NCBI GenBank assembly: GCA_958295925.1
Contig: OY282384.1
Location: forward strand, 1,572 to 65,571
Source: an uncultured Acidimicrobiales bacterium
GTDB lineage: Bacteria > Actinomycetota > Acidimicrobiia > Acidimicrobiales > CATQHL01
Direction: 5' to 3'
DNA: 64,000 nucleotides
The position numbers and the translations under genes are program-made. The notes under the pieces were generated by a model, which saw nothing but the letters and a program-made list of their open reading frames with translations, ran no database searches and was not told the DNA's origin. Of the stretch, positions 12,959 through 44,467 are shown piece by piece (positions within the stretch are counted from its first letter, which is position 1; each line of letters opens with the position of its first letter).

Positions 12959-13054
12959 CGCTGCCCCGCAGCCGGTTCCCATCCGAAACCCCGTGGAAGG
13001 AGAAGCGAACCCGGGAGCATAAAGGCAGCTACGCCTATTTAGGAGGTGAGAACC

Positions 13055-14764
13055 ATGACCGCCGCACGCCCGCGCCGCCGGCTCACGCCGGAACGCAGCC
13101 AACAGATACTCCAAGCTATGCAGGATAGCAAGAACCAAGCCAGCTACCAGCAGGAGCAGGAAGCCACCGAGGCCAGGAGCAGAGCCCAAGCATCGGCTCA
13201 GGCCGCCGCCCCGCCGGCGAAGCCCCGCACCCCGGGGCGAGGCGGCAAGTTCCTGCTTACCTCCGGCGTCGCCGCCGGCACCTGCGCCATAGTACTGGCC
13301 GGGTGGCTGACGCTGGCCAGCACCTTCGGTGGGAATGAACCGGAAAACTACGCGGCTATCGCCGACAACCCGTACTATGCCGCCGCAACGGCACCGCCCC
13401 AGGCCCCGGCCGCTGAGCTATGCCGCTACGGCGAGGAATGGGCTGCTTGCGCCGCGCCCACGCCGGAGACCACAGCACCCAGATACAGCGAACCGGAAAT
13501 GGGAAATCTGACCATCCACCCCGAGGTATGGAACGAAGGCATCATCACCGGTGAGTACCAGGCCGAGAGCCGTGCCCACAGCCCAGCACCGGACAACGAA
13601 CCTAAGCCGACCCAGGCAGAACCGGAAACGCCGGCAGAGGCAGCCCAGGCCCTTACATCCCTGGCCCAGGCTGAAACCGAAGACCCAGCCGCGCTGGAAA
13701 CGGCCGCAGAAGCCGCCCCAGAAGCCGCAGCGGAGACCACCCCGGTGGAGCTTCCCAGCAATGAGGGAACTACTCCAGAGACGACCCCGGAGTGGAACCC
13801 AGAGACCGATGCCAGCATCGACGTGACCCTGGTCACGGAAGTACCCGCCGAATGGCAAGAGCCTTTCACCGTCGCAGGCACGGCCGAAGAAACAGACAGC
13901 TATGCGCCGACCAGCGCCGTCAGCCAACCGGCCTACCTGGCCTACCTGGACCCCACAATGATAGAGGAGATCTTCGGCAACCCGGAGAAGAGGGACGGAG
14001 GAGAGGAGCCCCTATGCACCAAGGCCCAACCCGAGCACGTGGAAACACTGGTCACCAGCAAATCGGAAGTGGAGACCATCGTCACTGGGTTCCACTGCAA
14101 CCACAGCAGATACCTACAGCTAGGTAACGCCATTGCGCAGCTGGAAAGCATGCTCGGTAGAGCCTACCCTCTGAGCAAGACCGTTCTACTGAACACCCCC
14201 GCAGAGGGGCACGACACTTGCGGGTTCCTACCCCACCCAGACTACAATGTATATTCAGGCAACGTGGTTTGGGACAAGAGCACCATCGTGGTCCACACAA
14301 CCCGGCATGGAGCAGACACCAGCTGCGGAAGAATGGAAGCAACCATCATCCATGAGGTAGCGCACGCTTGGTTCCACGGAAACGAGCTCTGGTTCGATGA
14401 GGGAATGGCCGACCACTTGGAGCGCAAGCTCACCGAGACACGAGCCAGGCCGGTCTGCACCCAGTTCAAGAACCTAAAGGAGTTAGAACGAGCCCTCGAC
14501 GACGGAGAGGAAACCAGCAACTGCGAGTACTCCATGGGCGGCGCGCTCTTCGACGAGCTAGAAATGCACTTCCGGTCAAAGCGAGGAGCGAACTTCTACA
14601 CTCTGATGGGAGAACTAGCCCGCCAGACGGTCGAGAGCAGCAATCATGGCTGGCTGGACTACCGTAAAGGCAAAGCCAACCTCTGGATGGCAGATGGGAT
14701 GGATTCCAAGGCCCGCGAGATCATCGACAGATGGTGGGACGGAGACCCATACAAGCCCAGATAG
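13055..14764 (+). CDS. membrane-anchored protein with C-terminal HExxH (Peptidase_MA-like) domain, copy 2
   Basis: AGGAGGTGAGAACC then ATG 13055; TM FLLTSGVAAGTCAIVLAGWLTLA; acidic A/E/T/P linker; TIIHEVAHAWFHGNELWFDEGMADHLE. Confidence 0.7.
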   Translation: MTAARPRRRLTPERSQQILQAMQDSKNQASYQQEQEATEARSRAQASAQAAAPPAKPRTPGRGGKFLLTSGVAAGTCAIVLAGWLTLASTFGGNEPENYAAIADNPYYAAATAPPQAPAAELCRYGEEWAACAAPTPETTAPRYSEPEMGNLTIHPEVWNEGIITGEYQAESRAHSPAPDNEPKPTQAEPETPAEAAQALTSLAQAETEDPAALETAAEAAPEAAAETTPVELPSNEGTTPETTPEWNPETDASIDVTLVTEVPAEWQEPFTVAGTAEETDSYAPTSAVSQPAYLAYLDPTMIEEIFGNPEKRDGGEEPLCTKAQPEHVETLVTSKSEVETIVTGFHCNHSRYLQLGNAIAQLESMLGRAYPLSKTVLLNTPAEGHDTCGFLPHPDYNVYSGNVVWDKSTIVVHTTRHGADTSCGRMEATIIHEVAHAWFHGNELWFDEGMADHLERKLTETRARPVCTQFKNLKELERALDDGEETSNCEYSMGGALFDELEMHFRSKRGANFYTLMGELARQTVESSNHGWLDYRKGKANLWMADGMDSKAREIIDRWWDGDPYKPR

Positions 14765-15575: not shown

Positions 15576-15581
15576 TAGAAT
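15576..15581 (+). promoter_or_regulatory. candidate extended -10 (TGGTAGAAT) giving a leaderless dcm mRNA
   Basis: TAGAAT 15576-15581 preceded by TGG; ATG 15589 is 7 nt downstream and has no SD, unlike nearly all other genes here. Confidence 0.35.
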
Positions 15582-15588
15582 AGAGAAG

Positions 15589-16842
15589 ATGAAGAAAGAA
15601 AATGAACCGAAATTCCTTGCCGTGGACTTTTACTGCGGCGCCGGCGGAACCACCCGCGGGCTGAGCGACGCCGGTGGATACGTGATCGCCGGCGTAGACA
15701 AGGACCCGGCCTGCCGCCGCACCTACCAGGAGAACAACCCCAACTGGACACTCGACCGGGGAACCCCCGAATACCTAGAGATGGACATGTTCCCAGCAGC
15801 CCCAGACCATCCCGAGGGCCAGCAGGACGAAATCATGTCCGAACTCAACCGGCTACTCGGCCCAGCCAAAGAGAATCATCCGCAGCTCCCCCTGCTTTTC
15901 GCCATCTGCGCCCCGTGCCAATCCTTCACAAAGTATCCGCAGCCGCACATGTCGGAAGGGAGAACGCGGGCCCGGGCGACAGACAGCAGCCTGATCGCCC
16001 AGTCCCTGCCCTTCATCGAACGGTTCAAGCCCGAGATGATACTCTGCGAGAACGTAGCCGGCATCGAAAAGAGCAGGTACGCCGCAGTCTGGACCGACTT
16101 CATCGAGCAGCTAAAAGAGAAAGGGTACCGAGTGGGAACCAGCACCGTGTGCGCCGCCGACCACGGCGTCCCGCAGAACCGCAAGCGCTCCATCATAATG
16201 GCCGTCAAACGCAAAGACGGCGACGAGGCGAAGAACGAACCCATCGCAATGCCGCAGCCAACCGGAGAAGGCCGAAAGCCGACGGTGGCTGACGCCATAT
16301 CACACCTGCCGGCACTGCAAGCCGGGGAGAAAGACGAGAAACTAAGCAACCATGCGTGCCTGAACCTCTCGGAGACGAACAAGAGCCGACTACGCGCCCT
16401 CGCGCCCGGACAGCCGAACCACCTGCTCCCCGACGAACTGGCGCTCCCCTGCCACCGCCGGCTAGAGAAGAAAGGGAGAAAAGGATTCGAGGATCCCTAC
16501 ACCCGCCTGCGGCCGGACCGCCCGGCCCCGACGATAACGACGCGGTTCAACAGCGTGTCCAACGGGAGATTCGGACATTACGACCCGGAGCAGACGAGGG
16601 GACTATCCCTGCTGGAAGGAGCGCTGCTCCAATCCTTCCCAGAAGGATACCGGTTCCGCGGAGGAAGTGCGGAGACCGTCGCCCGGATGATCGGAAACTC
16701 AGTCCCGCCGAAGCTGGCAGCCAGCATGGCGGAGCACCTATGCGCCGCGTACGGCAAGAACCCGTCCCAGGAGAACCCATACGACGCCTGCGAGGCGGAA
16801 CCAAGGAGGACGCAATGCCTGAAGAGGGAAAAGAGACCATAG
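15589..16842 (+). CDS. dcm: DNA (cytosine-5)-methyltransferase
   Basis: Motifs I FYCGAGG, IV CAPCQSFT, VI LCENVAGI, VIII QNRKR, X GNSVPP. Confidence 0.95.
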   Translation: MKKENEPKFLAVDFYCGAGGTTRGLSDAGGYVIAGVDKDPACRRTYQENNPNWTLDRGTPEYLEMDMFPAAPDHPEGQQDEIMSELNRLLGPAKENHPQLPLLFAICAPCQSFTKYPQPHMSEGRTRARATDSSLIAQSLPFIERFKPEMILCENVAGIEKSRYAAVWTDFIEQLKEKGYRVGTSTVCAADHGVPQNRKRSIIMAVKRKDGDEAKNEPIAMPQPTGEGRKPTVADAISHLPALQAGEKDEKLSNHACLNLSETNKSRLRALAPGQPNHLLPDELALPCHRRLEKKGRKGFEDPYTRLRPDRPAPTITTRFNSVSNGRFGHYDPEQTRGLSLLEGALLQSFPEGYRFRGGSAETVARMIGNSVPPKLAASMAEHLCAAYGKNPSQENPYDACEAEPRRTQCLKREKRP

Positions 16843-17210
16843 AAGAAGCCGCAGACAGAGCGGCGAAGCGGATCGAGGAGCCCCCTGGAGACGACGGCAT
16901 GGACGCCGTGCTGCTCCGCGCGTTGGACGGAGGCGCGCTGGTAGGAGCACTGTGGCGAAACGCCGCGGACCAGGAAGCCGGGGCCGAGCCCGGGAAAACC
17001 AAGGACGCGAAAGGGAAGGAGCAAGGAGTGACAGGGAACGAGAACGACAACGGGAAGAAGGCGTCGCTGCCCGCGAAGGGGCTGCAGGCCCTGCTGGACT
17101 TGGCGGAAGGGTACGTCAGCGAGAACGGAGCCGAAGCTGGACGAAGATACGCCGACCCGGCCGAGCTAGAGAAGGCGATGAGGAACGCCGCCACGGCCTT
17201 GAAACGATAA
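16815..17210 (+). CDS. acidic hypothetical protein in the dcm-vsr operon
   Basis: AAGGAGG 16803-16809, ATG 16815 overlapping the dcm 3-prime end by 28 nt; 131 aa. Confidence 0.5.
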   Translation: MPEEGKETIEEAADRAAKRIEEPPGDDGMDAVLLRALDGGALVGALWRNAADQEAGAEPGKTKDAKGKEQGVTGNENDNGKKASLPAKGLQALLDLAEGYVSENGAEAGRRYADPAELEKAMRNAATALKR

Positions 17211-17223
17211 CTGCGAGGACGGA

Positions 17224-17652
17224 ATGACGGACTTCCTCACCCCGGAAGACCGCTCCCGGCTGATGTCCAAGATCAGAGGAAAGGACACCCGGCCAGAGAA
17301 AACCGTGCGCCAGCTCCTCTGGCACGCCGGATTCCGCTACCGGCTGAACGACAGGAAGCTGCCGGGAACCCCAGACCTGGCGCTAGCCCGATACCGCACC
17401 GCCGTCTTCGTCAACGGATGCTTCTGGCACCGCCACGACTGCCGGAAAGGCACGAAGCTCCCCAAGACAAACCGGCAGTACTGGCTGAAGAAATTCGCCG
17501 ACAACGCCGCGCGAGACGCCGCCAATCTCCGGATACTATCCCAGTACGGATGGACGACCACGGTGATCTGGGAATGCAGAATGGAAGAGGGGACGCAGCA
17601 CCTGCTGTTGGAGCTGTCCGAAAAGAGACGAAGGGAGAAGGACCGAACATGA
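17224..17652 (+). CDS. vsr: very short patch repair endonuclease
   Basis: RSRLMSKIRGKDTRPE..LPGTPDLALARYRTAVFVNGCFWHRHDC..TNRQYWLKKF..GWTTTVIWEC matches E. coli Vsr along its length. Confidence 0.93.
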   Translation: MTDFLTPEDRSRLMSKIRGKDTRPEKTVRQLLWHAGFRYRLNDRKLPGTPDLALARYRTAVFVNGCFWHRHDCRKGTKLPKTNRQYWLKKFADNAARDAANLRILSQYGWTTTVIWECRMEEGTQHLLLELSEKRRREKDRT

Positions 17653-19844
17653 CCACTGCGACACAACCAGAAATGCATGCTGCAGAGAGAAAGGACGTCG
17701 AGCTGCAGCTGCAGATACTGCCCAGAGCACTCACCGCCCTCGGGAAGGACTTGGTCACCGACGACATAGTCGCCATCACGGAACTGGTGAAGAACTCCTA
17801 CGACGCATTCGCTCAGGAAGTTCTCGTGAAGCTGCATATGGACGAGAACGGGGAACAAAGCCTGGAAATACGCGATGACGGTCTCGGGATGAACAGAAGG
17901 ACAATAGAAGACCAGTGGTGCAAGATCGGCACAGCCTACAAGAGAGAAAACCCCTGGGCAAGAAGGGCGGGAAAGACCCGCAGAGTATCAGGGAACAAAG
18001 GACTCGGCAGGCTTTCCATGGCCAGACTGGGCAACAGGATGACGATGGTGACCCAAGCTCTCGGAGAGAAATGCTGGGAGGTGGAAGCAAACTGGGCGAC
18101 GATCGCCGGGTCGGCAGACATGCCGACGAACGGAATCACTCTGCGAGAGGCGCGGGGTGGAAGCCCATTCGACACATCCGGCACCCGGATAACAATACAA
18201 GAACTGAGCAGCGAATGGAGCGAAGGGAAGCGGCAGGAACTGCGCGAGAACCTACGCCGGCTAATATCCCCCTTCGCAGAGGCGTCCGACTTCGGAATCA
18301 CGCTGGACCTCGCAGGAGAACAAGAAGAAGGAAAGCTGGAGGCCCAGACGTTCCTCCAAACACCCAAATACGCAATCCGCGGCGAGGCGGACAGCCAGGG
18401 AAACATAAGAGCGGAATATCGACGCCAACCGGAGGGATCAAGCGGAATCACAGCAGCGGCGAAGGTAACACTCTCCTGGAGCCAGGTATGGGAGGAGGAG
18501 ACCAAGAGGGAGCGCTGGCAGTTCGAACACGACAGGGAGACCGCAAAATGCGGAGGGTTCTCCTTCGAAATCCGCGCATGGGACATAGACACCGAGGGAA
18601 CGAAGGAGATAGCGGAGGAATACGGGCTGGCGCGAAGGGACATCCGAGAGGCCATAAGAGCCCACAAGGGCATATCCATATACAGAGACGGAGTGCTGGT
18701 ACTCCCGAAATCGGACAGAAACGCCGACTGGCTAGGCATGAACCTACGCCGGGTGAGCAATATCGGGAGAAGGCTGAGCACCAGCCAGATCGTAGGATGC
18801 ATCTCCATAACCGAAGACGGCAACCCAAGGATCCAGGACACGACGGACAGAGAACGCCTCTCCGCCAACAGGGAAACGGAAGAGTTCGAATCACTCGTGA
18901 AATACGTTCTTTACGAGGTTGAGAAGCGTCGGAACGAACAACGGGCGGAGAGAAGAGCGGCGGCGCCAGAGAGGACGATGACCCACCTCTTGGAGAACGT
19001 ATCCGCAAGCCGTCTGATCGAGGAGACGGAGGCGCTAGCGAGAGATGGAGAGAAAGCCGAAGCAGTAGTGCCCCTAGTCAGAGAGCTGGAGACAGCGCTA
19101 GCAGACAGCCGGGAGGAGATCGAAAGGAGATTGTCATACTACAGCCGGTTAGCAGCCATAGGCACGATAGCGGAAACGTTAGTCCACGAAATCAGGAACA
19201 GGACGACCGCCGTCGGACGATTCCTCAAAACCGCGGAGAAGCTACTCCAAGCACATCCCGACGACCGGGCGGAGCAGGAAAGAAAGCGGGCAGAGAAGTC
19301 GGTCCGGATCCTCGAGGACATGGCGGACCGGTTCGCACCGATGGCGAATCGGAAGTTCAAGCGCGGGACGAGACGCTCGATCCTGGAGGAGAGAATGGAG
19401 ACATGCCTAGACATGAGACAGGGAGAGTTGAAGGCCCACGGCATCACATGGTCCCGACCAGAAGGAAGGACGGAAGCGCGAGTAGACCCCGGTGAGTTGG
19501 ACATCATCTTGGACAACATGATCGCCAACGCAACGTACTGGCTACGGCACTGCGAAAATCCAACCCCACGAATGGAATTCTCCATCCAGGAGTGCGAAGA
19601 CCCAGAGAGAGCCGAATTATGGCTGCATGACAACGGCCCAGGCGTAGCGGAAGAAGACAAGAGGAGAATATTCCTAGCCGGGGTCTCCGGCAAGCCGGAC
19701 GGAATCGGCATGGGACTGACGACAGCCGCCGAGATAGTCGCCGCCTACGGCGGGAGCATGAGAGCTGAGTGCCCAGGCAAATTAGGCGGGGCATCCTTCA
19801 GATTAGACCTGCCACTAGGCAGGGAAGGAACAAAGAAAGAATGA
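17649..19844 (+). CDS. dual-GHKL protein: N-terminal MORC/HATPase_c_3-like ATPase fused to C-terminal histidine kinase
   Basis: ATGA overlap with vsr. N-terminal: ELVKNSYDA, RDDGLGM, GNKGLGRLS. C-terminal: H-box ETLVHEIRNRTTAV, N-box LDNMIANATYW, G1 DNGPGV, G2 GIGMGL. Confidence 0.85.
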   Translation: MTTATQPEMHAAERKDVELQLQILPRALTALGKDLVTDDIVAITELVKNSYDAFAQEVLVKLHMDENGEQSLEIRDDGLGMNRRTIEDQWCKIGTAYKRENPWARRAGKTRRVSGNKGLGRLSMARLGNRMTMVTQALGEKCWEVEANWATIAGSADMPTNGITLREARGGSPFDTSGTRITIQELSSEWSEGKRQELRENLRRLISPFAEASDFGITLDLAGEQEEGKLEAQTFLQTPKYAIRGEADSQGNIRAEYRRQPEGSSGITAAAKVTLSWSQVWEEETKRERWQFEHDRETAKCGGFSFEIRAWDIDTEGTKEIAEEYGLARRDIREAIRAHKGISIYRDGVLVLPKSDRNADWLGMNLRRVSNIGRRLSTSQIVGCISITEDGNPRIQDTTDRERLSANRETEEFESLVKYVLYEVEKRRNEQRAERRAAAPERTMTHLLENVSASRLIEETEALARDGEKAEAVVPLVRELETALADSREEIERRLSYYSRLAAIGTIAETLVHEIRNRTTAVGRFLKTAEKLLQAHPDDRAEQERKRAEKSVRILEDMADRFAPMANRKFKRGTRRSILEERMETCLDMRQGELKAHGITWSRPEGRTEARVDPGELDIILDNMIANATYWLRHCENPTPRMEFSIQECEDPERAELWLHDNGPGVAEEDKRRIFLAGVSGKPDGIGMGLTTAAEIVAAYGGSMRAECPGKLGGASFRLDLPLGREGTKKE

Positions 19845-20893
19845 GGATACTCTTCGTCGAGGACGAGCCGGAGAATATCGAGACGGTGCAAGAGCGCCTA
19901 CGCGAGGAAATGAGGGGAATTCAGATGAGGACCTGCGGGTTCAAAGAAGCGCAGGCGGAAATCAAGACCTTCGCTCCAAGCCTGGTAGTCCTCGACCTGA
20001 TCGGAGAGGAGGAAGAGCCAGAGGGCTTGGGAACACAGGAATACATCTGGGCATACCATTTCTGCCCGATCGTCATATACTCGGCCAAAGCCGAGATGGC
20101 ACGAAAGGAGCACCCCTTCATAAGGGAAGTCAAGAAGGGAACCGGGAGCGAAGAAAAGGTGCTGGCAGCAGTCAAAGGATTCAAGCCGCACATCGACGCG
20201 CTCGAGGAAACGAGACGACGCGTAAACAGAGAACTGACGGAATCCATGAAGGCGACAGCCCCATGGGCCTTCCAGAACCTCGAGGATGAAGAGGAGAAAA
20301 AGGACTACATAGCCAGAGCAGGAAGAAGGCGGCTGCCTGAGATGGCTGCCGAGGAAGAGGACGACAAACCCCAACCAGGATGGGAGCAATACATACACCC
20401 ACCGCGCCCGGGGGAACTGCTGACCGGAGACATAATACGCGAGACCGGCAGCGACGAGAATGCGGCAACCAGCTACCGAGTAATCTTGACGCCGTCATGC
20501 GACCTCAGCAAGCACGGAGGCGCCAAAGCAAAAACGGACAGGGTGCTGACAGCACGCTGCGTACCAACGAAACAAGCACTAAAGCGAGAAGGAACGAAAT
20601 TCAACGCAGGGGAGATCCGATCCCGCCTGAACCAAGGCTACTGGAGAACGACGCTCCCGCTCCCAAGCATGAAAGGGGCATTCCCGCCGATGGCAGTCGA
20701 CTTCCGGCAGATGGAAACGCTCCCCATAGAGGACCTAGAGGACGGGAAAGCTTTCGAAAGAATAGCCAGCCAATACAGCCCCTTCAGAGAGCTGGTATCA
20801 GAGGCGGCAGCCGCCTACGTCGGCAGAGCGGGACTGCCCGACAGGGATACGGGAGCATGGGCAAAGGAGATACTAGATGAACCAACCAAATAA
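19841..20893 (+). CDS. response-regulator receiver domain fused to an uncharacterised C-terminal domain
   Basis: ATGA overlap with the kinase gene; MRILFVEDEPEN..SLVVLDLIG..PIVIYSAK = CheY-like REC; about 220-aa C-terminus (VILTPSCDL..) with no motif I recognise. Confidence 0.8.
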   Translation: MRILFVEDEPENIETVQERLREEMRGIQMRTCGFKEAQAEIKTFAPSLVVLDLIGEEEEPEGLGTQEYIWAYHFCPIVIYSAKAEMARKEHPFIREVKKGTGSEEKVLAAVKGFKPHIDALEETRRRVNRELTESMKATAPWAFQNLEDEEEKKDYIARAGRRRLPEMAAEEEDDKPQPGWEQYIHPPRPGELLTGDIIRETGSDENAATSYRVILTPSCDLSKHGGAKAKTDRVLTARCVPTKQALKREGTKFNAGEIRSRLNQGYWRTTLPLPSMKGAFPPMAVDFRQMETLPIEDLEDGKAFERIASQYSPFRELVSEAAAAYVGRAGLPDRDTGAWAKEILDEPTK

Positions 20894-20924
20894 GAGCAAC
20901 TTCCCGCGTGAAGAAGGAGAAGAG

Positions 20925-22238
20925 ATGATCAGAGGCAGAGAGAGAGCAGAAATGCCCCAACCCCCCACCCAAGACCAAATCCAATTCCTCTGGGAGTACC
21001 TGAAGCACATCGAAGCCAAAGGCTGGTCCTACCGGGACCTGGACAGCTGGGAAGTCGACGATGACCCAGAGGTCCTCCTGGGCCAATACCTGGCCTACCG
21101 CCAGAGCGAAGCCCGCAACGCCGACCCGGCCCAGATACCCCAAGCCCCCGGCCTGCGGGTCCAGGACACCCATCTCATCCTGGACTTCCCCGACGGCTCC
21201 GTCTGCATCGAAAGGAAGGAAGGAACCGGCCCGCCCACCAACCCGGCAGTACCCAAGCCGCCGAGGACCGCGCCGGCGCCCCTAACCCAATGGTCCCAGC
21301 CCCGGCCCAATCCAATCAGCGGCATCGAAAAGGCCAAGCAAGTCTTCCACCAAACTCTCGACCGAATGCAGGACCTGCAGATCCTGGCCGGCCGCCCCGA
21401 CCCCCACGACCCCCTGGCCGAAAAGATGACGGTTGAGAGGGACAAGGCCAAACAGCAAGCGGCCGAACTCATCGCCAGCTGGGCCACCCACCACTGGGAG
21501 GAGACCGAACTGTCGGAAGAACAGCAGAAGGAATTCGTCCGCATCGACCTCTGCCGGGACTGCGGCCAGAAACGCAAGATAGTCCGCATGAGCATGCGGG
21601 AGAACCTGAAGCCTGACCAACGCCACGGGCTCATCAATACGAAGGGCGCCACGAAGAGCGCCACGAAGAACGCCGTAACCGACCCGGGGAGCGCCGACCA
21701 AGGCTGGCGGGAGTTTCACTGTCCCGGGCCCACCCCGGTGGAAGAGCGGAAAGAAGTGGAAACCGAAATCGTATTCGACGACCGGGAGCCGGCCGCCCGG
21801 GCCAACCTGGATGCGATGACCCGCAACCTCCTGCGCGGCACCCGGCAACTCCGAGAAGACCTGGACATAGACCTGGACCTAGACGCCGAGGCCGGCAGAC
21901 AGCACGAGCTGATGAGCAGACGCCACTGGAGCGTGCCGGAGCCTGAGAACACGCCGTCCAGCCAGGAACCCCGGCGACAACCGGTCCGAGTGGCCGTAAC
22001 CACCGGCGACGCCGCCGCGGACCAAGGGCCGAACCCGGAGACCAGCCAAGCGCTCCAAGCCCTGGCCGGAGTGCCCGGAGTGGAAGTGGTCACCGACCTC
22101 AGCAAGCTGGTGGAGCGGTTCAACGCCGACCGGAAGGCCCAAGGCCTGGAGCCAATAGAACCAGTGCGGCCCCTGCCCCGGAAGGACGACCAGGACAGCG
22201 ACACCACCGCGGAACCCAACGAACAGAACGGGAAATAA
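20925..22238 (+). CDS. hypothetical protein
   Basis: GAAGGAG 20913-20919, ATG 20925 (track start 20877 overlaps the previous gene); contains CRDCGQK..HCPGP. Confidence 0.55.
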   Translation: MIRGRERAEMPQPPTQDQIQFLWEYLKHIEAKGWSYRDLDSWEVDDDPEVLLGQYLAYRQSEARNADPAQIPQAPGLRVQDTHLILDFPDGSVCIERKEGTGPPTNPAVPKPPRTAPAPLTQWSQPRPNPISGIEKAKQVFHQTLDRMQDLQILAGRPDPHDPLAEKMTVERDKAKQQAAELIASWATHHWEETELSEEQQKEFVRIDLCRDCGQKRKIVRMSMRENLKPDQRHGLINTKGATKSATKNAVTDPGSADQGWREFHCPGPTPVEERKEVETEIVFDDREPAARANLDAMTRNLLRGTRQLREDLDIDLDLDAEAGRQHELMSRRHWSVPEPENTPSSQEPRRQPVRVAVTTGDAAADQGPNPETSQALQALAGVPGVEVVTDLSKLVERFNADRKAQGLEPIEPVRPLPRKDDQDSDTTAEPNEQNGK

Positions 22239-28494: not shown

Positions 28495-30456
28495 CTGGTC
28501 AGAGAGCTGAAGGCCAGAGGCCGTCCGGCAGCCCCCGCCTACTGCCACTCCAGCGTGAACCACACCATCGACCAGGACAATCTGGGCTTCAATTTTTTGG
28601 ACCTGGACAACGGGAGCCGGGACGACCCCGACGGCCTGGGCGCGGAATGCTTCCGCCAGGTCATCAATACCTTCCTGGAACGGTGGCCCGACGCCCCCAT
28701 AGCAGAAAGCCTCTCCGGCAACGGACGCTGCCACATCCTCCACAATGCCGACCCGAAGGACCGAGCCGCCTGGAGCAACGACAAGAAGCAAACCTACATC
28801 GCCCACGGCGCGCCGGAGTGGAAGGTGGAATTCTGGGACCCCTACGGGCAGGGACGATACCGAATCTTCACCGACCGCTGGCTGAACGGCGACGCCGACC
28901 AGGCGCCCCTGCCTACGATCACGCACACCGAATTGAGAGAGTTCTTCCAGACCATCCTCGCCCAGCTCTGGCGCCCCGAGCCGCCAAAGCGGCCGGTAGG
29001 AAGGCCGCCGGCGGCCGACCCCGACATCCCCTACCCCGATGGAACCCACCTGGCTCAGACCGAGCAGGGTGCAGCGCTGCGGGTGGCCCAGCGCCAGCTG
29101 GAACAGGAACGACCCATGGTCATGCTGGACGACGGAACCTGCTACATCGCCCGAGACAGCGGACTGCTGGTCCAAATCCGAACCGACCAGCCCCTGGGCG
29201 CCGGCTCCCGGCTCTTCGCCAGCGAAATCAGGAAAGCCAATCACGCGGCAACTCAGGAATTCACCGAAGACCGCAGCGAAGCCGAACTCCCGACCTATCG
29301 GCATTACCAGGACCAATTCATCACCTGGGCCGACTCCCGCCCAGCCAACTTTCCGGATAAAGTGCTGCGCCACCTCACGATACTAGCCGAGGACGAAGCG
29401 GAGCACCCTCAGCTGATCTGGCACCAACAGAACAGAGCCCCGCTCACTCAAGCCAACCTGAACCCGCAGCCGCCGAAGGATTCACTGTACCCGCTGGCCG
29501 ACGGCCGGATCTACTCCACCGCCCGCAGCGACGTACTCAGCCCGGAGGAGGTCTACCACGACCTCCACACCGACGACGTGGCGCGGCTCACCCGTACCTG
29601 GGTGCCCGGCGCCTTCCAGCCGGACGCGGGCAAGTGCCAGCCCCAGGGGCAAACCTACGCCGCTTGGCTGCTCCAAGCATGGGCCGACAGCTTCAAGCTC
29701 CTGGTCTTCGCCTCCACCCGCCCCCGCAAGGAATGCGGCTTCAGCATCATGATCGGACACCCCGACCGCGGAAAAACCACGATGCTGGACATCTGGCAGA
29801 CGCTGGGGCTCTGCAACAAAACCAACCAACCGCTCCGGGACCAGAGCCGCAGCGGCATCCGACCCTTCGACTACCTGGCCGCCGCCCTCTGCAAGGAGCG
29901 ACTGGTGTTTCTGGACGAACTGGCCACTCCCCTGGAGGAGAATCCCAAGCCGATCCCCAGCGGGCCGCTGAAGGCCCTCACCGGACAGACCACGCTGACG
30001 TACGAGACCAAGTTCAAAGACGAAGTAACCCGCACCCGGCGGGGCAACCTGCTGGGCGTGGGAAACCACCCGCTGCTTTTAGACGCCGCGAACCCGGCCA
30101 TCCGTGAGAGGCTGCTCTTCATCCCGGAACCGAAGGAAGTGGAAGCCCTGAAGCCCCACCACGGCCTGCCGCCGGGACTCCGCAACACCGCCGAGTGCCT
30201 GGACGCGATACTGGACGCCTACCTCCAAGAAGCCAGCCGGCAGAGCAAGAGCAAGAACGACAGCCCGCCCTTCACCGCAGCCAGCTCACGAGAGTCCCGT
30301 AAAATCCGCGCCCAGCACGAAGCCCACTACGCCGCCTGGCAGGAGCAACAGCGCAGGAAACAGGGCCGCAACGGAAAGGCGCCCACCCCAGAGAAAGCAC
30401 CCGGAAAAGAGACCAGAACCAAAACAACCGGTACCAGGAAGCAGGCCAGCCGGTAA
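28495..30456 (+). CDS. replicative primase-helicase (AEP prim-pol N-terminus + SF3/P4-D5-type helicase)
   Basis: FNFLDLDNG (DxD) and SLSGNGRCHILH (SxH); Walker A GHPDRGKTT, Walker B LVFLDE. Start uncertain: AGGAGG 28481-28486 + 8 nt + CTG 28495; track start GTG 28555 has no SD. Confidence 0.8.
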   Translation: MVRELKARGRPAAPAYCHSSVNHTIDQDNLGFNFLDLDNGSRDDPDGLGAECFRQVINTFLERWPDAPIAESLSGNGRCHILHNADPKDRAAWSNDKKQTYIAHGAPEWKVEFWDPYGQGRYRIFTDRWLNGDADQAPLPTITHTELREFFQTILAQLWRPEPPKRPVGRPPAADPDIPYPDGTHLAQTEQGAALRVAQRQLEQERPMVMLDDGTCYIARDSGLLVQIRTDQPLGAGSRLFASEIRKANHAATQEFTEDRSEAELPTYRHYQDQFITWADSRPANFPDKVLRHLTILAEDEAEHPQLIWHQQNRAPLTQANLNPQPPKDSLYPLADGRIYSTARSDVLSPEEVYHDLHTDDVARLTRTWVPGAFQPDAGKCQPQGQTYAAWLLQAWADSFKLLVFASTRPRKECGFSIMIGHPDRGKTTMLDIWQTLGLCNKTNQPLRDQSRSGIRPFDYLAAALCKERLVFLDELATPLEENPKPIPSGPLKALTGQTTLTYETKFKDEVTRTRRGNLLGVGNHPLLLDAANPAIRERLLFIPEPKEVEALKPHHGLPPGLRNTAECLDAILDAYLQEASRQSKSKNDSPPFTAASSRESRKIRAQHEAHYAAWQEQQRRKQGRNGKAPTPEKAPGKETRTKTTGTRKQASR

Positions 30457-39133: not shown

Positions 39134-42100
39134 ATGCAGAACGACCCCGCCCAGACCACCGACGCCACTCAAGACGCCATCCAGCAAGCCCTCCAGTCCC
39201 TGGAAGAAAACAACCCCAACCCAACCCAAGGCCGCTGGCTGGAAGCCATAACCATCAGCGCCGCGCCCCTGATTAAAGAATACGACCTAGCCGCCTGCCA
39301 TTCCTGGGCCGACTGGCCCGAGCGGGAAGACCACTTCCCGGAGACTTCCCAGCAGGACATCGGCATCGACGCCGTAGCCCAACGCCGGTCCGATGGCGCC
39401 TACGTCGCCATCCAGTGCAAAGCCCGGCAACTCAACGAAGCCGGCCAGGGCCAGGACATCCAGAAAGGCGAATTGGACAAGTTCGTCGCCGCCTCCAGCA
39501 ACCCCCTCTGGGCCGAACGCTGGCTGGTCACCAACGGCGACAACCAGATCAGCGGCAACGCCGGGCAAGTGGCAACCATGTCCGACCCCGGCCGCCCGGT
39601 CAAGCTGGTCAACCTCCACGCCGACCTGGTGGCTCAGGCCCAGAGCCAAAGCTACCAGGAAGAACCCTGCCCCCACTGCCGGGCCCAGGAGGACGCCTTC
39701 CTGCCGGATAACTACATTGACAGTAACGACGGCGCGAGCCGGCCCATCCAGACCAAGTCCTGCATGCAGCACGAGGCCGTCGCCGCCAGCGTCCGAATAC
39801 TCAAAGAGCACGAACAATCCGATACCGGCGGCCTCCCCGTCGGCCAGGCCCGCGGCCGACTGATATTACCCTGCGGCACCGGGAAGACCCGCATATCACT
39901 GCGAATAGTGGAAGAACTGACCGACCCCGGGCAGCTTTCGATAGTACTCTGTCCTTCAATCGCATTGGTCGCCCAGCTGCGGCAGGAATACCTCAACCAG
40001 GCCCACCGGCCCCTCCGCGCCCTGGCCGTCTGCTCCGACCAGACCGCCGGCTACGACCCCCGGGGCGAGGATAAGCGCAACACCGCCGAAGACCCCACCC
40101 TGGACAACAGCAACGTCAGCGCCAAGGAACTCAAAGGCAAAGTAACCACCGACTCCCAGGAGATCGCCGACTGGATACGGCAAGGACAAGCAGAGAACCA
40201 GGAAAGCGACGACAAAGCCATCAGCGTCATCTTCGGCACCTACCAATCCGGCGCCGCCGTCGCCGAAGCCCTGAAGCTGGCCGAAGCCGAGGTCCAGGTC
40301 CTCATCGCCGACGAGGCCCACCGCACCGCCGGGCTGAAAAAGAAGCAGGGCGCCTCCGCCAAGGCCTACGAGGCCGAGCAGCGCATCCGCGACTTCACCC
40401 TGTGCCACGACCAACAGGCCTTCCCGGCAAAATATCGCATCTACCAGACCGCCACCCCGCGGATCTACACGCAGCAAGCCCGCCGGGCCGTCCCCGACAG
40501 CGACTGGGTGGTCCGCTCGATGAACGACGAATCCATCTTCGGCGTGGTCCTCTACGAAAAACAGTACGTCGAAGCCGTCAGGAACGAATGGCTCAGCGAC
40601 TACAAGATAATCGCCCTGGGAGTGAACGACCACCAGGCCCTGGAACAAGCCAATCTGATGGCCCTCCAGGACACCGGAAAAGGGACCAACCAGCTGACCG
40701 TCACCAAGTACCTGAAGGGGCTGGCCTTCGCCCTGGCCATGGCCGGCGCCACTCAGTGGCCGCCCAACCCGGAAGACAAGCAGGACGACCAAGACGGCCA
40801 GAACAACCAACAGACCCAACAACAGCGCAACCAAACTGAAAAGCTCCACCTGCCGATCCAATCCTGCATCGCCTTCATGAACACGGTGGAGAAGTCCAAG
40901 AAGATGCAGCGAGAGCTGAGCACGGACACCATCCGCAGCTGGCTCCGCATCTGGATGGCAGAGAACAAGATGCCGGAAGGGCCGGCGCACTATCAACTGG
41001 AGCACCTGGACGCGAGCAGCAACATCGTCAAACGCGACAACGCCAAACGCAAACTGGCCCAAGCCACCAAAGAAGCACCCCACGCCATCATCAACGTCGG
41101 CATCTTCGGCGAAGGGACCGACTCACCCTCCCTGAACGCCATCGCCTTCCTGGAACCCCGGCGCAGCCCCATCGACGTGATTCAAGCCGTGGGAAGAGCC
41201 ATGCGGACTTCTCCAGGAAAGGAAACCGGCTACATCATCTGCCCCATCGTGATTCCGCCCAACGCCGACCCCGAACAATGGCTGAAGCACAGCGGACCCG
41301 ACGACGGCTGGAAGGAGCTGGGCGATATTCTCCTAGCGCTCAGGGCTCATGACTCCAGGATCGAAGACAACCTGGCCGACCTGCTGACCCTCTACGTCCC
41401 CAAGCCGCCGCCGGTAGTGACTAATCTAGTAGCCATCGCGATCGGAGAGGACAAGCGTTTCAGCTACCGGGAGCATACCGGAGAACCCGGCCAAGCCGTG
41501 GAAGACCTGGAACTCGTGCTGACCGACCAGATGCCGATCAATAGAAAGTTCCGGCCGGTAACCGAAAGGACCGGGAACGAAGCCGCCCGGCTCAGCGTCA
41601 CCGCCGCCAGGACCGGCCCGCTTTCCGAGGAAGACGGCCCCATGTTCCAAGGGCTGAACGGCAGCCCCGAAGGCGCCGGCCAGCCCGGCACGGCCCCCGC
41701 CGCCGAAGCAGCGGCAACGATTGAAACAACCCAAGCTATTACAGCCCATCTCCCGGAACCCACCGAGATCCTAGCCGGTAAGAAGCACAGCGACGGCTCC
41801 CTGGAAATCCGCCAGGATTGCGTGGTACGGCAGAAGCCCCAGAACGACGGCACTCCAGGGCCAATCGACCTGGACAAGTCCAAGAAGCGCGCCCAGGACA
41901 TGCTCAACAAAGGCGAAGGCCTCCGCCTGGCCACCGGCGAGAACCGGCCGCCCCGCCGCCAGCGCCGCAGCATCCACGAGGAATCAGCCTACCAGCTATT
42001 GATGCGGACCAACCTGGACGAACACGGCCAGGCCATCCAGATGAACCTCCTGGCCAAGTCGGGACTGGTCCAGAACCGGCCCCAGCGGGACGCCAACCTG

Positions 42101-44467
42101 ATCGAAGCCTCCATCAAGGAGGCCGCCCACCAACTCACCCAGGACGGACTCAAGGCGGAATTGGAACGACACCTAGGCCTGGACCTACTCAAGCCCGACG
42201 ACAAGAAGCAGCAGGCCGACGGCTGCACCATCGCCGCCCTATTACTGATGAACGCCGCCATGCTGCACCAGCGCATCGCCCAAGGGCAGTGGCTGCCCAA
42301 CGTCAGCGACCTGAAGGAAATCAAACAGGACGTCCACGTAATTAGAAGAATCAAAAGGGAATGGGACCGCATCGGCCGCGTCGACTTCCTGCCTATAATA
42401 GAACCGGCCCTCAGCGTCATCGAAACCATCGAGGACACGGAACGGGTCGCCGGCCTGGAACGGGCCCTGCGGCACCTGGCAGCCGAGGCCGAACGCCTGG
42501 CCGCCACCTACGCCGACCTGGGCGCCGACCACGCCGGAGCGCTATTCAACAAGGTACGCGGCCACCAGGCCTCCGACGGCGCCTACTTCACCCGGCCCAC
42601 GGCAGCGTCGCTATTGGCCCGACTGACCCTGGACTGCCACGAACCCCAGGACTGGACCAGCGAAGAGACCTGGCGGGAAATGAAGACGATTGATTTAGCC
42701 TGCGGCAGCGGGACGATCCTGGCCGCCGTCCTGGCCGACCTGAAACGCCGGGCTCGGCTGCAGGGAGCTAGCGAAGAGCACCTCGCCCAGCTGCAGAAAA
42801 TAGCCGTCGAAGACGTCCTCAAGGGCCTGGACATTGACCCCATCTCCCTGCAGCTGGCCGCCGCCCAGCTCACCGGCGGAACCCAGGACATCCGCTATAG
42901 AAGAATGGGCCTGTTCCAGATGCCCTACGGCCCCAACCCCGAATACCCGGACCGCGTCTCCGCCGGAACCCTGGAACTGATCAGCCAGCAGTCCCTGGTC
43001 CCCCAGCCCGGGCAGCTTGGATTCCAAGACGAAGCGATCCAGACCCGGAACGCCTGGGAGAAGCAGCAGGAGACCGCGCTGGAAGGCGCGGTGGAAGCCG
43101 CACGAAGTCCCCGGAACATCGTAATGAACCCACCCTTCAGCAACCGCACCAAGGTCGGAGAGAAATTTCCCAAGGAGATTCAGAACAAGCTGCGGCAACG
43201 GATCGACCAGATGGAGAACCTGCTGGTGAAAAGCGACCCGGGCCTGACGGAGTTCGTCGACAAGAACTCCGTCATGCCCTTGTTTGCGGCCCTAGCGGGC
43301 CAACTGCAACAAGGGCATGAGAACAACGTCCTGAGTATGATCTGCCCAACTATCTCGCTCTCCAACACATCAGGATTAAACGAGCGAAAACTACTCGCCC
43401 AGCGATACCACATCCGCACGATCCTGACTTCCCACCAACCACGCAACGTCAATATGAGCCAAGGCACGGGCATCCACGAAAGTATTGTCATCATGGACAA
43501 TCAAGCCCCAGGCTCCAGGGTGCCAACCCGTTTCGTCCACCTAGACCGGATGCCAGTGGCTGAAACCGAGGTTGCGGACTTACACCAAAATCTGCAGGAT
43601 TGCCAACAAGGCCAAATTCCAAACGGATGGGGAGAGATCTCCCAGTGGCCCGCCAATCAAATGGAACAAGGCGACTGGACGCCAGCCGTCTGGCGGTCGC
43701 CCGAATTGGCGGAAGCGGCCCGGCAATTCGCCGCCCACCCGGAAATGCGAACCATTCAGGAACACGGATATTCTTGTGAAGCCACCCGCGATATGATGAG
43801 GAAGTCCAACTTTATCCCGGCCACTCCCGGAAATAAAAGTAGCTTTCCCATCATCGACTCAAAAGGCGCCGACGGACAGAGAACCATCCGAAGCACGCCG
43901 GACGCGCAATGGCAGCCGACGAACCCGGACGAAGAGCAACGCATGCGCAAACGACTACTATCAAAAGCCGGTTTCCTGATGATAACATCAGGACAGAATA
44001 CGTCCACCGCCCGGCTGACCACCATTGCCAGTGACGAAGCCTACGTCGGACGTGGGTGGCTGCCCATCACCGGGCCTAACGCCGAGGAAGCTAAAGCCGT
44101 AGCAGTATTCCTCAACTCTACCCCAGGCCGTCTCCAAATACTGAGCAGCGCCGGTCGCACAATAGCCTTCCCCCAATACAATCCAGAGCCCCTGGAGAGC
44201 ATCCAAATCCCCAATATCAAAGAAAAAGCAACCCTGAAGACCCTAACCGACTGCTGGGAGGCAACGAAAAACATGGTAGTCCCCCAGTTCCGCGACGGAG
44301 AATGCAGAGTGCGACAACTCTGGGACGAAGCAGTCGCCGAAGCTCTAGGCTGGGACCCTGAAGAATTAACCCGGCTCCGCCTACTCTTGCACCAAGAGCC
44401 CCACGTGCGAGGACTAGGCTACAACCAGTACCAAGAAGCAGAAACGATTCACGAGGAAGGAAATTAG
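39134..44467 (+). CDS. Type ISP-like single-polypeptide restriction-modification enzyme (nuclease + SF2 helicase + N6-adenine methyltransferase + C-terminal specificity region)
   Basis: 1777 aa. N-terminal PD-(D/E)xK-like DIGIDAV..YVAIQCK; helicase motifs I PCGTGKT, II IADEAHR, III QTATP, VI QAVGRAMR; methylase motifs I DLACGSGTIL and IV NIVMNPPFS. Confidence 0.85.
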   Translation: MQNDPAQTTDATQDAIQQALQSLEENNPNPTQGRWLEAITISAAPLIKEYDLAACHSWADWPEREDHFPETSQQDIGIDAVAQRRSDGAYVAIQCKARQLNEAGQGQDIQKGELDKFVAASSNPLWAERWLVTNGDNQISGNAGQVATMSDPGRPVKLVNLHADLVAQAQSQSYQEEPCPHCRAQEDAFLPDNYIDSNDGASRPIQTKSCMQHEAVAASVRILKEHEQSDTGGLPVGQARGRLILPCGTGKTRISLRIVEELTDPGQLSIVLCPSIALVAQLRQEYLNQAHRPLRALAVCSDQTAGYDPRGEDKRNTAEDPTLDNSNVSAKELKGKVTTDSQEIADWIRQGQAENQESDDKAISVIFGTYQSGAAVAEALKLAEAEVQVLIADEAHRTAGLKKKQGASAKAYEAEQRIRDFTLCHDQQAFPAKYRIYQTATPRIYTQQARRAVPDSDWVVRSMNDESIFGVVLYEKQYVEAVRNEWLSDYKIIALGVNDHQALEQANLMALQDTGKGTNQLTVTKYLKGLAFALAMAGATQWPPNPEDKQDDQDGQNNQQTQQQRNQTEKLHLPIQSCIAFMNTVEKSKKMQRELSTDTIRSWLRIWMAENKMPEGPAHYQLEHLDASSNIVKRDNAKRKLAQATKEAPHAIINVGIFGEGTDSPSLNAIAFLEPRRSPIDVIQAVGRAMRTSPGKETGYIICPIVIPPNADPEQWLKHSGPDDGWKELGDILLALRAHDSRIEDNLADLLTLYVPKPPPVVTNLVAIAIGEDKRFSYREHTGEPGQAVEDLELVLTDQMPINRKFRPVTERTGNEAARLSVTAARTGPLSEEDGPMFQGLNGSPEGAGQPGTAPAAEAAATIETTQAITAHLPEPTEILAGKKHSDGSLEIRQDCVVRQKPQNDGTPGPIDLDKSKKRAQDMLNKGEGLRLATGENRPPRRQRRSIHEESAYQLLMRTNLDEHGQAIQMNLLAKSGLVQNRPQRDANLIEASIKEAAHQLTQDGLKAELERHLGLDLLKPDDKKQQADGCTIAALLLMNAAMLHQRIAQGQWLPNVSDLKEIKQDVHVIRRIKREWDRIGRVDFLPIIEPALSVIETIEDTERVAGLERALRHLAAEAERLAATYADLGADHAGALFNKVRGHQASDGAYFTRPTAASLLARLTLDCHEPQDWTSEETWREMKTIDLACGSGTILAAVLADLKRRARLQGASEEHLAQLQKIAVEDVLKGLDIDPISLQLAAAQLTGGTQDIRYRRMGLFQMPYGPNPEYPDRVSAGTLELISQQSLVPQPGQLGFQDEAIQTRNAWEKQQETALEGAVEAARSPRNIVMNPPFSNRTKVGEKFPKEIQNKLRQRIDQMENLLVKSDPGLTEFVDKNSVMPLFAALAGQLQQGHENNVLSMICPTISLSNTSGLNERKLLAQRYHIRTILTSHQPRNVNMSQGTGIHESIVIMDNQAPGSRVPTRFVHLDRMPVAETEVADLHQNLQDCQQGQIPNGWGEISQWPANQMEQGDWTPAVWRSPELAEAARQFAAHPEMRTIQEHGYSCEATRDMMRKSNFIPATPGNKSSFPIIDSKGADGQRTIRSTPDAQWQPTNPDEEQRMRKRLLSKAGFLMITSGQNTSTARLTTIASDEAYVGRGWLPITGPNAEEAKAVAVFLNSTPGRLQILSSAGRTIAFPQYNPEPLESIQIPNIKEKATLKTLTDCWEATKNMVVPQFRDGECRVRQLWDEAVAEALGWDPEELTRLRLLLHQEPHVRGLGYNQYQEAETIHEEGN

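Follow-up and report, generated by a model that had tools for sequence, protein, structure and literature searches.

What does a two-component phosphorelay do inside a gene cluster that otherwise looks like part of a restriction-modification (R-M) system? The question is raised by a locus in a 64,000-nucleotide stretch of contig OY282384.1, from an uncultured Acidimicrobiales bacterium (hereafter the window: the whole stretch that was analysed). Here five closely packed genes on the plus strand (15589-20893) encode a cytosine methylase (dcm), a small acidic protein, the repair endonuclease Vsr, a 731-aa histidine kinase (HK) and a 350-aa protein that begins with a receiver (REC) domain. A first-pass annotation, made from the letters alone, had proposed that the kinase and receiver form a phosphorelay wired to the methylase/Vsr pair, that the whole may be a methylation-linked restriction or abortive-infection system, and that the combination was new. 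The functional idea remains the best reading, given that the genes form a conserved unit whose output domain is MazF-like rather than DNA-binding; the novelty does not stand, as the same architecture and linkage were published in 2021 (Bellieny-Rabelo, Pretorius & Moleleki 2021, PMC8011034). The reading we favour, at a probability of roughly 0.45, is that the cassette is a methylation-linked, phosphorelay-gated toxin system: a non-canonical R-M-like defence or addiction module.

Anatomy of the cassette

All five genes were recovered on the plus strand, essentially where the first-pass annotation had placed them, and the sequence itself shows both ATGA overlaps that it had noted, at 17649 and 19841: the vsr stop and the kinase start share 17649-17652, and the kinase stop and the REC gene start share 19841-19844. 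The genes and their domains are as follows.

15589..16842, plus strand: dcm, C5 cytosine DNA methyltransferase, 417 aa (PF00145, TIGR00675, PADLOC MTase_II)
16815..17210, plus strand: small acidic open reading frame (ORF), an accessory gene of this cassette subtype, 131 aa, isoelectric point 4.8, its start behind an AGGAGG box
17224..17652, plus strand: vsr, very-short-patch repair endonuclease, 142 aa (PF03852, TIGR00632)
17649..19844, plus strand: soluble dual-GHKL histidine kinase, presumed sensor and phosphodonor, 731 aa (HATPase_c_3, HATPase_c)
17715..18308, plus strand: kinase N-terminal MutL/MORC/Hsp90-type GHKL ATPase module, residues ~23-220 (HATPase_c_3, intact Bergerat motifs)
18309..19106, plus strand: kinase middle region, residues ~221-486, highly conserved (invariant columns, no family match)
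19107..19835, plus strand: kinase HisKA-type DHp and HATPase_c core, residues ~487-729 (AtoS/FixL/ZraS and HK853 profile matches)
19841..20893, plus strand: gene of the 350-aa REC protein
19841..20146, plus strand: REC domain of this protein, residues 1-102 (Foldseek matches to receivers; D8, D52, K99)
20147..20368, plus strand: its helical linker, residues ~103-176 (structure models; R159..R163-R164)
20369..20893, plus strand: its C-terminal domain of MazF/PemK fold, residues ~177-350, a predicted toxic effector (AlphaFold model and Foldseek)

A consensus scan found no plus-strand terminator-like site within the five-gene unit, and no promoter or terminator signals above shuffle expectation.

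The methylase, kinase and REC genes travel together

To define the unit we surveyed gene neighbourhoods in one genome per species, giving 80 loci from at least 15 phyla, mostly in metagenome-assembled genomes, and searched the window proteins against the six-frame ORFs of these loci. The groups represented include Dehalococcoidia, Nitrospirales, Planctomycetota, Spirochaetota and Desulfobacterota, as well as Acidobacteriota, Bacteroidota, Gemmatimonadota, Firmicutes and Actinobacteria. The kinase gene lies directly upstream of the REC gene on the same strand in 76 loci and within 5 kb in 78; dcm lies no more than 5 kb from the REC gene in 74. The linkage of the cassette genes is far beyond chance, and the concern that the kinase/REC pair might not be conserved together with dcm and vsr is answered by these counts and by the 44 loci that carry vsr. 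Two gene orders predominate, HK-REC-dcm (25 loci) and vsr-HK-REC-dcm (22 loci); the order seen in the window, dcm-[small ORF]-vsr-HK-REC, recurs in Dehalococcoidia loci that carry the window's Dcm subtype.

When 2230 flanking ORFs were clustered, no further family appeared in more than 13 of the 80 loci. The commonest flanking families are those of type I R-M systems (HsdS 13/80, HsdM 10/80, HsdR 9/80). This rules out a conserved component that had been overlooked, for instance a nuclease, and since no such gene exists among the flanking ORFs the effector must be sought inside the kinase/REC pair. The core of the system is Dcm, the kinase and the REC-MazF-like protein; no separate nuclease is conserved with it. 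In one locus (L001, 1844-16269) a Fic gene and a vsr-kinase-REC-dcm cassette lie within a type I R-M operon, with hsdM on one side and hsdS on the other.

Two components of the first-pass picture fall outside this core. The gene vsr, found in about 55% of loci (44/80), is common but not constant and counts as an accessory. The next gene downstream, which had been placed at 20925..22238 and thought a possible member, in fact starts at 20877, 17 nt inside the end of the REC gene; the corrected ORF (20877-22238) has no family match and, because none of 84 related loci holds a homolog of it, it is excluded as a cassette component.

The Dcm partners of the kinase/REC pair fall into two different clades, while kinase similarity is almost the same for both, a pattern that fits a generic sensor-effector module joined to different methylases.

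A soluble kinase with two GHKL modules

Pfam places HATPase_c_3 at residues 41-165 of the 731-aa protein (E 6e-17) and HATPase_c at residues 613-724. A profile search of the PDB aligns residues 478-718 with the DHp and CA cores of FixL, ZraS and HK853 (E 1e-21 to 1e-11), and NCBIfam returns partial matches of the same core to AtoS/FixL/ZraS (E 1e-14 to 1e-20). Together these agree with the original description of the protein as a MORC/HATPase_c_3-type GHKL ATPase joined to a full HisKA and HATPase core. The N-terminal module gives weak profile matches to Hsp90, MutL and PMS2, and a stronger one to the NCBIfam model of the BbrUII/HgiDII restriction enzymes (NF050001, E 4e-24). This last match covers model positions 5-199 of 659 and, at 85 bits against a 550-bit cutoff, does not reach full-length membership. 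The PADLOC model REase_II likewise matches the kinase N-terminus only.

Kinase homologs are numerous (more than 1290 clusters, ~48% identity, full length). In a 40-sequence alignment with a mean column identity of 66%, both nucleotide-binding modules retain their signatures. The Bergerat motifs of the N-terminal GHKL module are invariant (E45, N49, D52, D76-D77-G78-x-G80 and G115-x-K117-G118-x-G120); in the kinase core H513-E514 is invariant, N517 nearly so, and N623/N627, D661-x-G663-x-G665 (G1) and G687-M-G689-L690 (G2) are invariant or close to it. The 260-residue middle region is conserved as strongly as the rest, with invariant stretches AHKGISVYRDGVLVLPKS, DWLGLDLRRVS, GRRLSTSQ and DTSDRERL, and has no PDB or Pfam sequence match; it is a candidate transducer or a candidate ligand- or DNA-contact domain. 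The kinase has no transmembrane segment (maximum 19-residue Kyte-Doolittle hydropathy 1.0), and the REC protein is likewise free of hydrophobic segments (maximum also 1.0).

A receiver domain and its linker

The Pfam REC match of the 350-aa protein is weak (E 0.004); the receiver identity emerges from structure and conservation. The full-length AlphaFold model (pLDDT 85) contains a domain that Foldseek aligns with the receivers of VicR, MicA, YycF and PhoP at target-normalised TM-scores of 0.67-0.75 (VicR and MicA 0.72-0.75), and among 40 homologs D8, D52 (the acceptor position) and K99 are invariant and E7 and S81 nearly so. The protein is, as first described, a CheY-like receiver with a non-standard output. 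Its homologs fill more than 460 clusters of full-length proteins.

Two linker helices (103-146 and 150-162) are present in both models, the second of which is described below. The linker bears an invariant R159..R163-R164 motif with a near-invariant R162 and ends in an acidic loop of low confidence; residues 161-180 have a pLDDT of 60-63 in the full-length model. Three cysteines are also invariant in the family: C75, where receiver strand 4 begins (HFCP), and C220 and C240 in the C-terminal domain. They may form a redox or metal site.

With H, N, G1 and G2 boxes in the kinase and an acceptor aspartate in the receiver, the signatures of a two-component system are present in full. These catalytic signatures, the ones expected of a functional relay, are invariant across both families.

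The output domain adopts a MazF/PemK-like fold

A structure search with the full-length model returned receiver matches only, so residues 104-350 were modelled apart, with a 120-sequence alignment. The resulting model is confident (pLDDT 89, pTM 0.81) and its top 50 PDB matches in Foldseek are, without exception, MazF-type toxins (MazF/EndoA/MoxT/MazF-mt; E 1e-4 to 8e-3, probability 0.99-1.0, target-normalised TM-score 0.51-0.73). The structures matched come from S. aureus, B. subtilis (EndoA/YdcE), B. anthracis (MoxT), E. coli and M. tuberculosis. Among predicted viral structures (BFVD), a majority of the nine best matches are annotated 'PemK-like protein' or 'Endoribonuclease'. The order of strands and helices is that of MazF, one for one, plus two inserted helices and an extra C-terminal helix. 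The domain had been called unrecognisable: this holds for its sequence, which has no Pfam match, and not for its structure. Nor is it an ordinary DNA-binding output, the finding that would have spoken for a housekeeping two-component system: in 40 members Pfam detects no output domain of a known regulatory kind, DNA-binding or other.

When the secondary-structure elements are set in register, as distinct from a superposition, GD falls in strand 1, strand 2 opens with R213 and strand 3 closes with C240; by this register R213 and C240 would occupy the positions of the catalytic Arg and Thr of MazF. The motifs that are invariant in the family are its own: WEQY..PP, GD, (T/N)P(S/A)CD, C240, SPFRE and RPGLPDRD. 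By residue the invariant set comprises E182, Y184, PP187-188, D197, (T/N)P(S/A)CD 217-221, C240, SPFRE 313-317, R329, R335 and W340. On the model, then, a barrel fold of MazF/CcdB type is solid; the chemistry is not, as the invariant set is family-specific and a MazF signal is missing at the sequence level.

A profile of the output domain finds 877 representative proteins, 262 of them at E <= 1e-30. Among the 150 matches listed, most are ~350-390 aa long with the domain at ~180-365, that is, a receiver followed by this domain (REC-X); the rest are shorter entries mostly filled by the domain.

Plasmid-borne copies and effector variants

The N-terminal 484 residues of the kinase match 110 plasmid records, 66 of which are conjugative and 43 from Campylobacter. 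Pairs of a kinase and a REC-X-like protein occur on C. jejuni pAR-0413-1, on Acaryochloris pREB1 and on an Enterobacter mori plasmid; dcm lies beside the pair on the first two, and none is listed next to the Enterobacter pair. On the conjugative plasmid pAR-0413-1 (3786-8251 of the fetched locus) the kinase gene precedes a REC-X-like gene (23% identical across 95% of the query), and a divergent dcm comes next; C. jejuni with this plasmid is a culturable, clinically relevant host of the system. The response regulator (RR) of the Enterobacter pair aligns with the REC-X profile at an hhalign probability of 96%, over a region that covers the PP..G..(N)P(A)CDL motifs.

In other, distant relatives both the methylase and the effector differ. 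Burkholderia and Hymenobacter plasmids (loci L088, 4676-9810, and L089, 4610-9779) carry the order N6-methylase, kinase, 228-aa RR and MBL-fold hydrolase, and a Bacteroides finegoldii plasmid (L091, 4923-10025) carries kinase, 209-aa RR-like protein, HNH nuclease and N6 methylase. The plasmid loci described here adjoin AbiE, AbiJ, ParDE, HicB, VapD, SocA/MqsR and integrase genes. Copies are found on conjugative plasmids and beside Abi, toxin-antitoxin and type I R-M genes, and the swapping of effectors and methylases seen in these gene arrangements is modular in the manner of a defence system.

Methylase, small ORF and vsr

The dcm product matches PF00145 (E 3e-40), TIGR00675 and PADLOC MTase_II (E 7e-66), and its translation contains the PCQ and ENV catalytic motifs. 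The same Dcm subtype recurs in Dehalococcoidia loci (L006-L040) at E 1e-134 to 1e-150. As the conserved partner of the kinase/REC pair, dcm presumably serves self-marking. The vsr product matches PF03852 (E 2e-31) and TIGR00632 (E 2e-41). Vsr repairs the T:G mismatches that arise from deamination of 5-methylcytosine (5mC).

The small acidic ORF truly starts at the ATG at 16815 and so overlaps the 3′ end of dcm by 28 nt. Searches of Pfam, PADLOC and NCBIfam gave no family match for it; its C-terminal ~45 aa (LQALLDLAEGYVSENG..RYADP..LEKA) recur in conserved form in the small ORFs that occupy this position in three Dehalococcoidia loci (L006, L008, L011). In these three loci and in three more (L020, L028, L031) a gene for a protein of ~810 aa (2346-4781 in L008) separates the window-type dcm from the small ORF. 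The protein has GHKL-like motifs, with a weak HATPase_c_3 match in one member (E 0.001). Because this ~810-aa gene is absent from the window, the cassette looks like a reduced version.

How the cassette might work

We think it most likely that the cassette serves defence or addiction and is triggered by phosphorylation; an ordinary circuit of gene regulation is the less likely reading. In the mechanism we propose, Dcm would mark the host DNA while Vsr repairs the T:G damage that 5mC entails. The paraMORC-like module of the presumably dimeric kinase would use ATP to probe DNA or another cue linked to infection. Unmarked or foreign DNA, or a lapse in methylation after loss of the cassette, could then lead the DHp/CA core to autophosphorylate H513, from which the phosphate would move to D52 of the receiver. 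Dimerisation of the phosphorylated receiver, or release of the helical/acidic linker, might assemble the MazF-like domains into an active dimer that cleaves RNA or otherwise poisons the cell. The outcome would be growth arrest, abortive infection that stops a phage or plasmid from propagating, or post-segregational killing.

Several observations weigh against this proposal. The link to MazF is structural: Pfam PemK (PF02452) matches none of 40 members, a profile search of the PDB with the output domain gave two insignificant and unrelated matches, and hhalign against MazF and Kid sequences gave a probability of 0.04%, the fetched loci holding no MazF homolog that could be used for a better profile. 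Foldseek superpositions on MazF structures have root-mean-square deviations of 4-7 Å. The invariant residues (E182, D197, C220-D221, C240, R316-E317) are not the classical Arg/Thr set of MazF, and R213 is substituted in a few members; for that reason the domain may work by another chemistry, or may bind nucleic acid and do no more. Sensing is the weakest step. Kinase identity holds at ~48% whether the Dcm partner comes from one or the other of two clades, which makes it unlikely that the kinase reads a specific methylated sequence. PADLOC (PADLOC-DB 2.0.0), which might have recognised a known defence system, did not: it returned MTase_II/DrmMII/DruM on dcm, Vsr, and REase_II on the N-terminal GHKL module, generic models all, and it holds no model for the kinase/REC pair. 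Our literature searches found no experimental study of any member, only the in-silico description of 2021. Carriage by phages is close to nil (0 in GenBank phages, 2 of 2.9 million viral contigs); we list this here, yet regard it as neutral for a role in defence.

Of the alternatives, the one that survives best is a two-subunit DNA restriction enzyme, in which the paraMORC-kinase scans DNA with ATP, the REC protein's C-terminal domain cuts or clamps unmethylated DNA, and phosphotransfer merely licenses the reaction. The N-terminal 200 residues do match the BbrUII/HgiDII model and PADLOC REase_II, the context is that of a type II cassette with methylase, Vsr and restriction genes, the invariant acidic residues E182, D197, D221 and E317 could bind metal, and sister variants contain true DNA nucleases (HNH) or MBL-fold hydrolases. 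However, the BbrUII/HgiDII similarity ends at model position 199 of 659, far below the cutoff; neither protein yielded a DNase family or fold, whether PD-(D/E)xK, HNH, GIY-YIG or another; and the sole fold relatives of the output domain are metal-independent RNases. We consider such an enzyme unlikely.

A non-toxic regulatory two-component system, as suggested by the authors of PMC8011034, would have the kinase sense a cytoplasmic cue, for example nucleoside triphosphate levels, and the REC protein tune how strongly the adjacent methylase or R-M genes are expressed or how active their products are. The signatures in kinase and receiver are bona fide, and the same study, besides proposing regulation, reports a Pectobacterium homolog that is up-regulated during infection of potato. 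Against this, the output carries a MazF fold and no DNA-binding or known regulatory domain, the pair travels with different methylase types and elsewhere with nucleases, as expected of an effector module, and it spreads horizontally and is located in defence islands. Pure regulation therefore seems to us improbable.

That dcm-vsr and an unrelated two-component pair are chance neighbours, or the remains of a decayed system, has next to no probability: relatives do have the ~810-aa gene that is lost here and 45% of loci lack vsr, but dcm (74/80) and the kinase (78/80) stay linked across phyla and in several gene orders, and in the window all frames are intact, the catalytic residues that are invariant in the family are kept and the stop/start overlaps persist.

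If the phosphorelay-gated toxin is real, it would be the first two-component phosphorelay coupled to self-marking by DNA methylation and the first MazF-type toxin controlled by receiver phosphorylation instead of an antitoxin, and it would offer a bacterial model for MORC-type GHKL ATPases that convert DNA sensing into a signal. A bolder version, a new class of immunity that joins R-M-style self-marking to an abortive output by means of a MORC-like kinase that senses how DNA is methylated, or that it is foreign, and by phosphotransfer switches on a receiver-fused MazF-like ribonuclease, is in our view doubtful. Were it true, the 'restriction' arm would act on the cell's own RNA and not on the DNA of the invader, while sister systems swap in HNH or MBL-fold effectors and N6 methylases. 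The module is in any case widespread (more than 1290 kinase clusters, 877 effector-domain proteins, at least 15 phyla) yet absent from PADLOC-DB 2.0.0.

The surrounding window

The window (1-64000) has a strong and uniform strand asymmetry, with an AT skew of +0.11 to +0.6, a mostly negative GC skew and ~60% GC. The majority of long ORFs lie on the plus strand, the majority of large ORFs have no Pfam family, and the window's proteins map to one contig of 643,545 bp (NCBI/ENA). This suggests that the window is part of a very large, unusual replicon or extrachromosomal element. The region is rich in defence genes, since further restriction-type genes are found at 39134-44467 (a 1777-aa fusion of a Mrr_cat_2 nuclease and a ResIII/helicase) and at 56248-58131 (a 627-aa N6_N4 DNA methylase). 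A 633-aa protein (28555-30456) has a borderline DUF5906 match, 27.5 bits against a Pfam cutoff of 27.6; we take this family to be typical of primase-helicase proteins of mobile elements.

Upstream of the cassette a 572-aa protein (13046-14764, plus strand) combines an N-terminal half rich in proline, alanine and glutamate with a C-terminal zincin-like HEVAH motif and a weak Peptidase_M1 match (E 1e-4, below the cutoff). Within this ORF, on the minus strand, ARAGORN calls a 95-nt tRNA-Arg(TCT) at 13581-13675. Rfam at gathering thresholds detects no tRNA or other RNA family in the window, and the call is probably a false positive.

Comparison with known systems

The output domain shares its fold, down to the order of strands and helices, with the MazF/PemK/Kid toxins. 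These are dimeric endoribonucleases that are restrained until released. The window domain differs from them in its length (~175 residues), its two inserted helices, its extra C-terminal helix and its other invariant residues; it carries a fused receiver where the toxins have a MazE-type antitoxin as partner, and it does not belong to the family at the sequence level.

The logic proposed here, from sensor to abortive response, is that of Detocs, in which phosphate moves from a histidine kinase to a receiver with a toxic effector fused to it. Detocs is not known to include a methyltransferase or Vsr, and it has a different sensor domain, a separate receiver-only buffer protein and a nucleosidase effector of the PNP type. 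PADLOC found no match to the DtcA, DtcB or DtcC families in the cassette, which has no gene for a receiver-only buffer.

The paraMORC/MORC proteins and the BbrUII/HgiDII enzymes resemble the window kinase in having an N-terminal MutL-like GHKL module with intact ATP-binding motifs, and in being encoded in operons with cytosine methylases and Vsr. The linkage of paraMORC, methylase and Vsr was described without a kinase or receiver (Iyer, Abhiman & Aravind 2008, PMC2292703); the terms 'receiver' and 'two-component' do not occur in that paper. Unlike the window proteins, the known members carry or adjoin nucleases (RecB-like, HNH, TIR) and helicases. They have neither a DHp/CA kinase core nor a receiver partner, whereas the window has both, and the similarity of the window kinase to BbrUII/HgiDII stops after ~200 residues.

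The closest relative is the system described in PMC8011034. There, HATPase_c_3, a new DHp family ('HEF_HK') and HATPase_c are combined in 174 of 222 kinase sequences, an adjacent RR-like family ('Response_reg_2') is linked in 91.6% of cases over 644 regions, and C5 methylases, Vsr, HNH and type I/II R-M genes are over-represented nearby. The authors derive the HEF_HK kinases from paraMORCs and, finding no known domain beyond the receiver in the RR-like proteins, speculate on a regulatory role (PMC8011034). The window pair agrees with this description in the following points: the kinase has HATPase_c_3, a DHp in which the histidine is followed by an acidic residue (H513-E514) and HATPase_c; the RR-like gene is adjacent (76/80 loci) and has E7/D8, D52, S81 and K99; and C5 methyltransferase and Vsr are linked to soluble proteins of wide, patchy phyletic spread. 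A bridge is provided by the Enterobacter mori RR, which lies beside such a kinase and is homologous to the window REC protein (hhalign 96%). The Pfam models PF19191 (HEF_HK) and PF19192 (Response_reg_2) did not match the window proteins at E up to 10, nor 40 REC homologs and seven other kinase/RR pairs (thresholds 0.1-10); as the models matched nothing tried, including pairs from genera named in PMC8011034 (Bacteroides, Agrobacterium, Hymenobacter), they do not discriminate. By architecture, context and the Enterobacter homology, we regard the window pair as belonging to the same kind of system.

Two differences stand out. Most of the window clade belongs to uncultured Dehalococcoidia, Nitrospirota, Planctomycetota and similar groups, not to Proteobacteria, and the C-terminal part of the RR, left uncharacterised in PMC8011034, where a regulatory role was proposed, is here predicted to have a MazF/PemK-like fold and to act as an effector. 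While the architecture itself has been known computationally since 2021, the assignment of a MazF-like effector, the definition of a minimal core and the catalogue of effector variants are new, and they turn a two-component system near R-M genes into a testable toxin-relay hypothesis.

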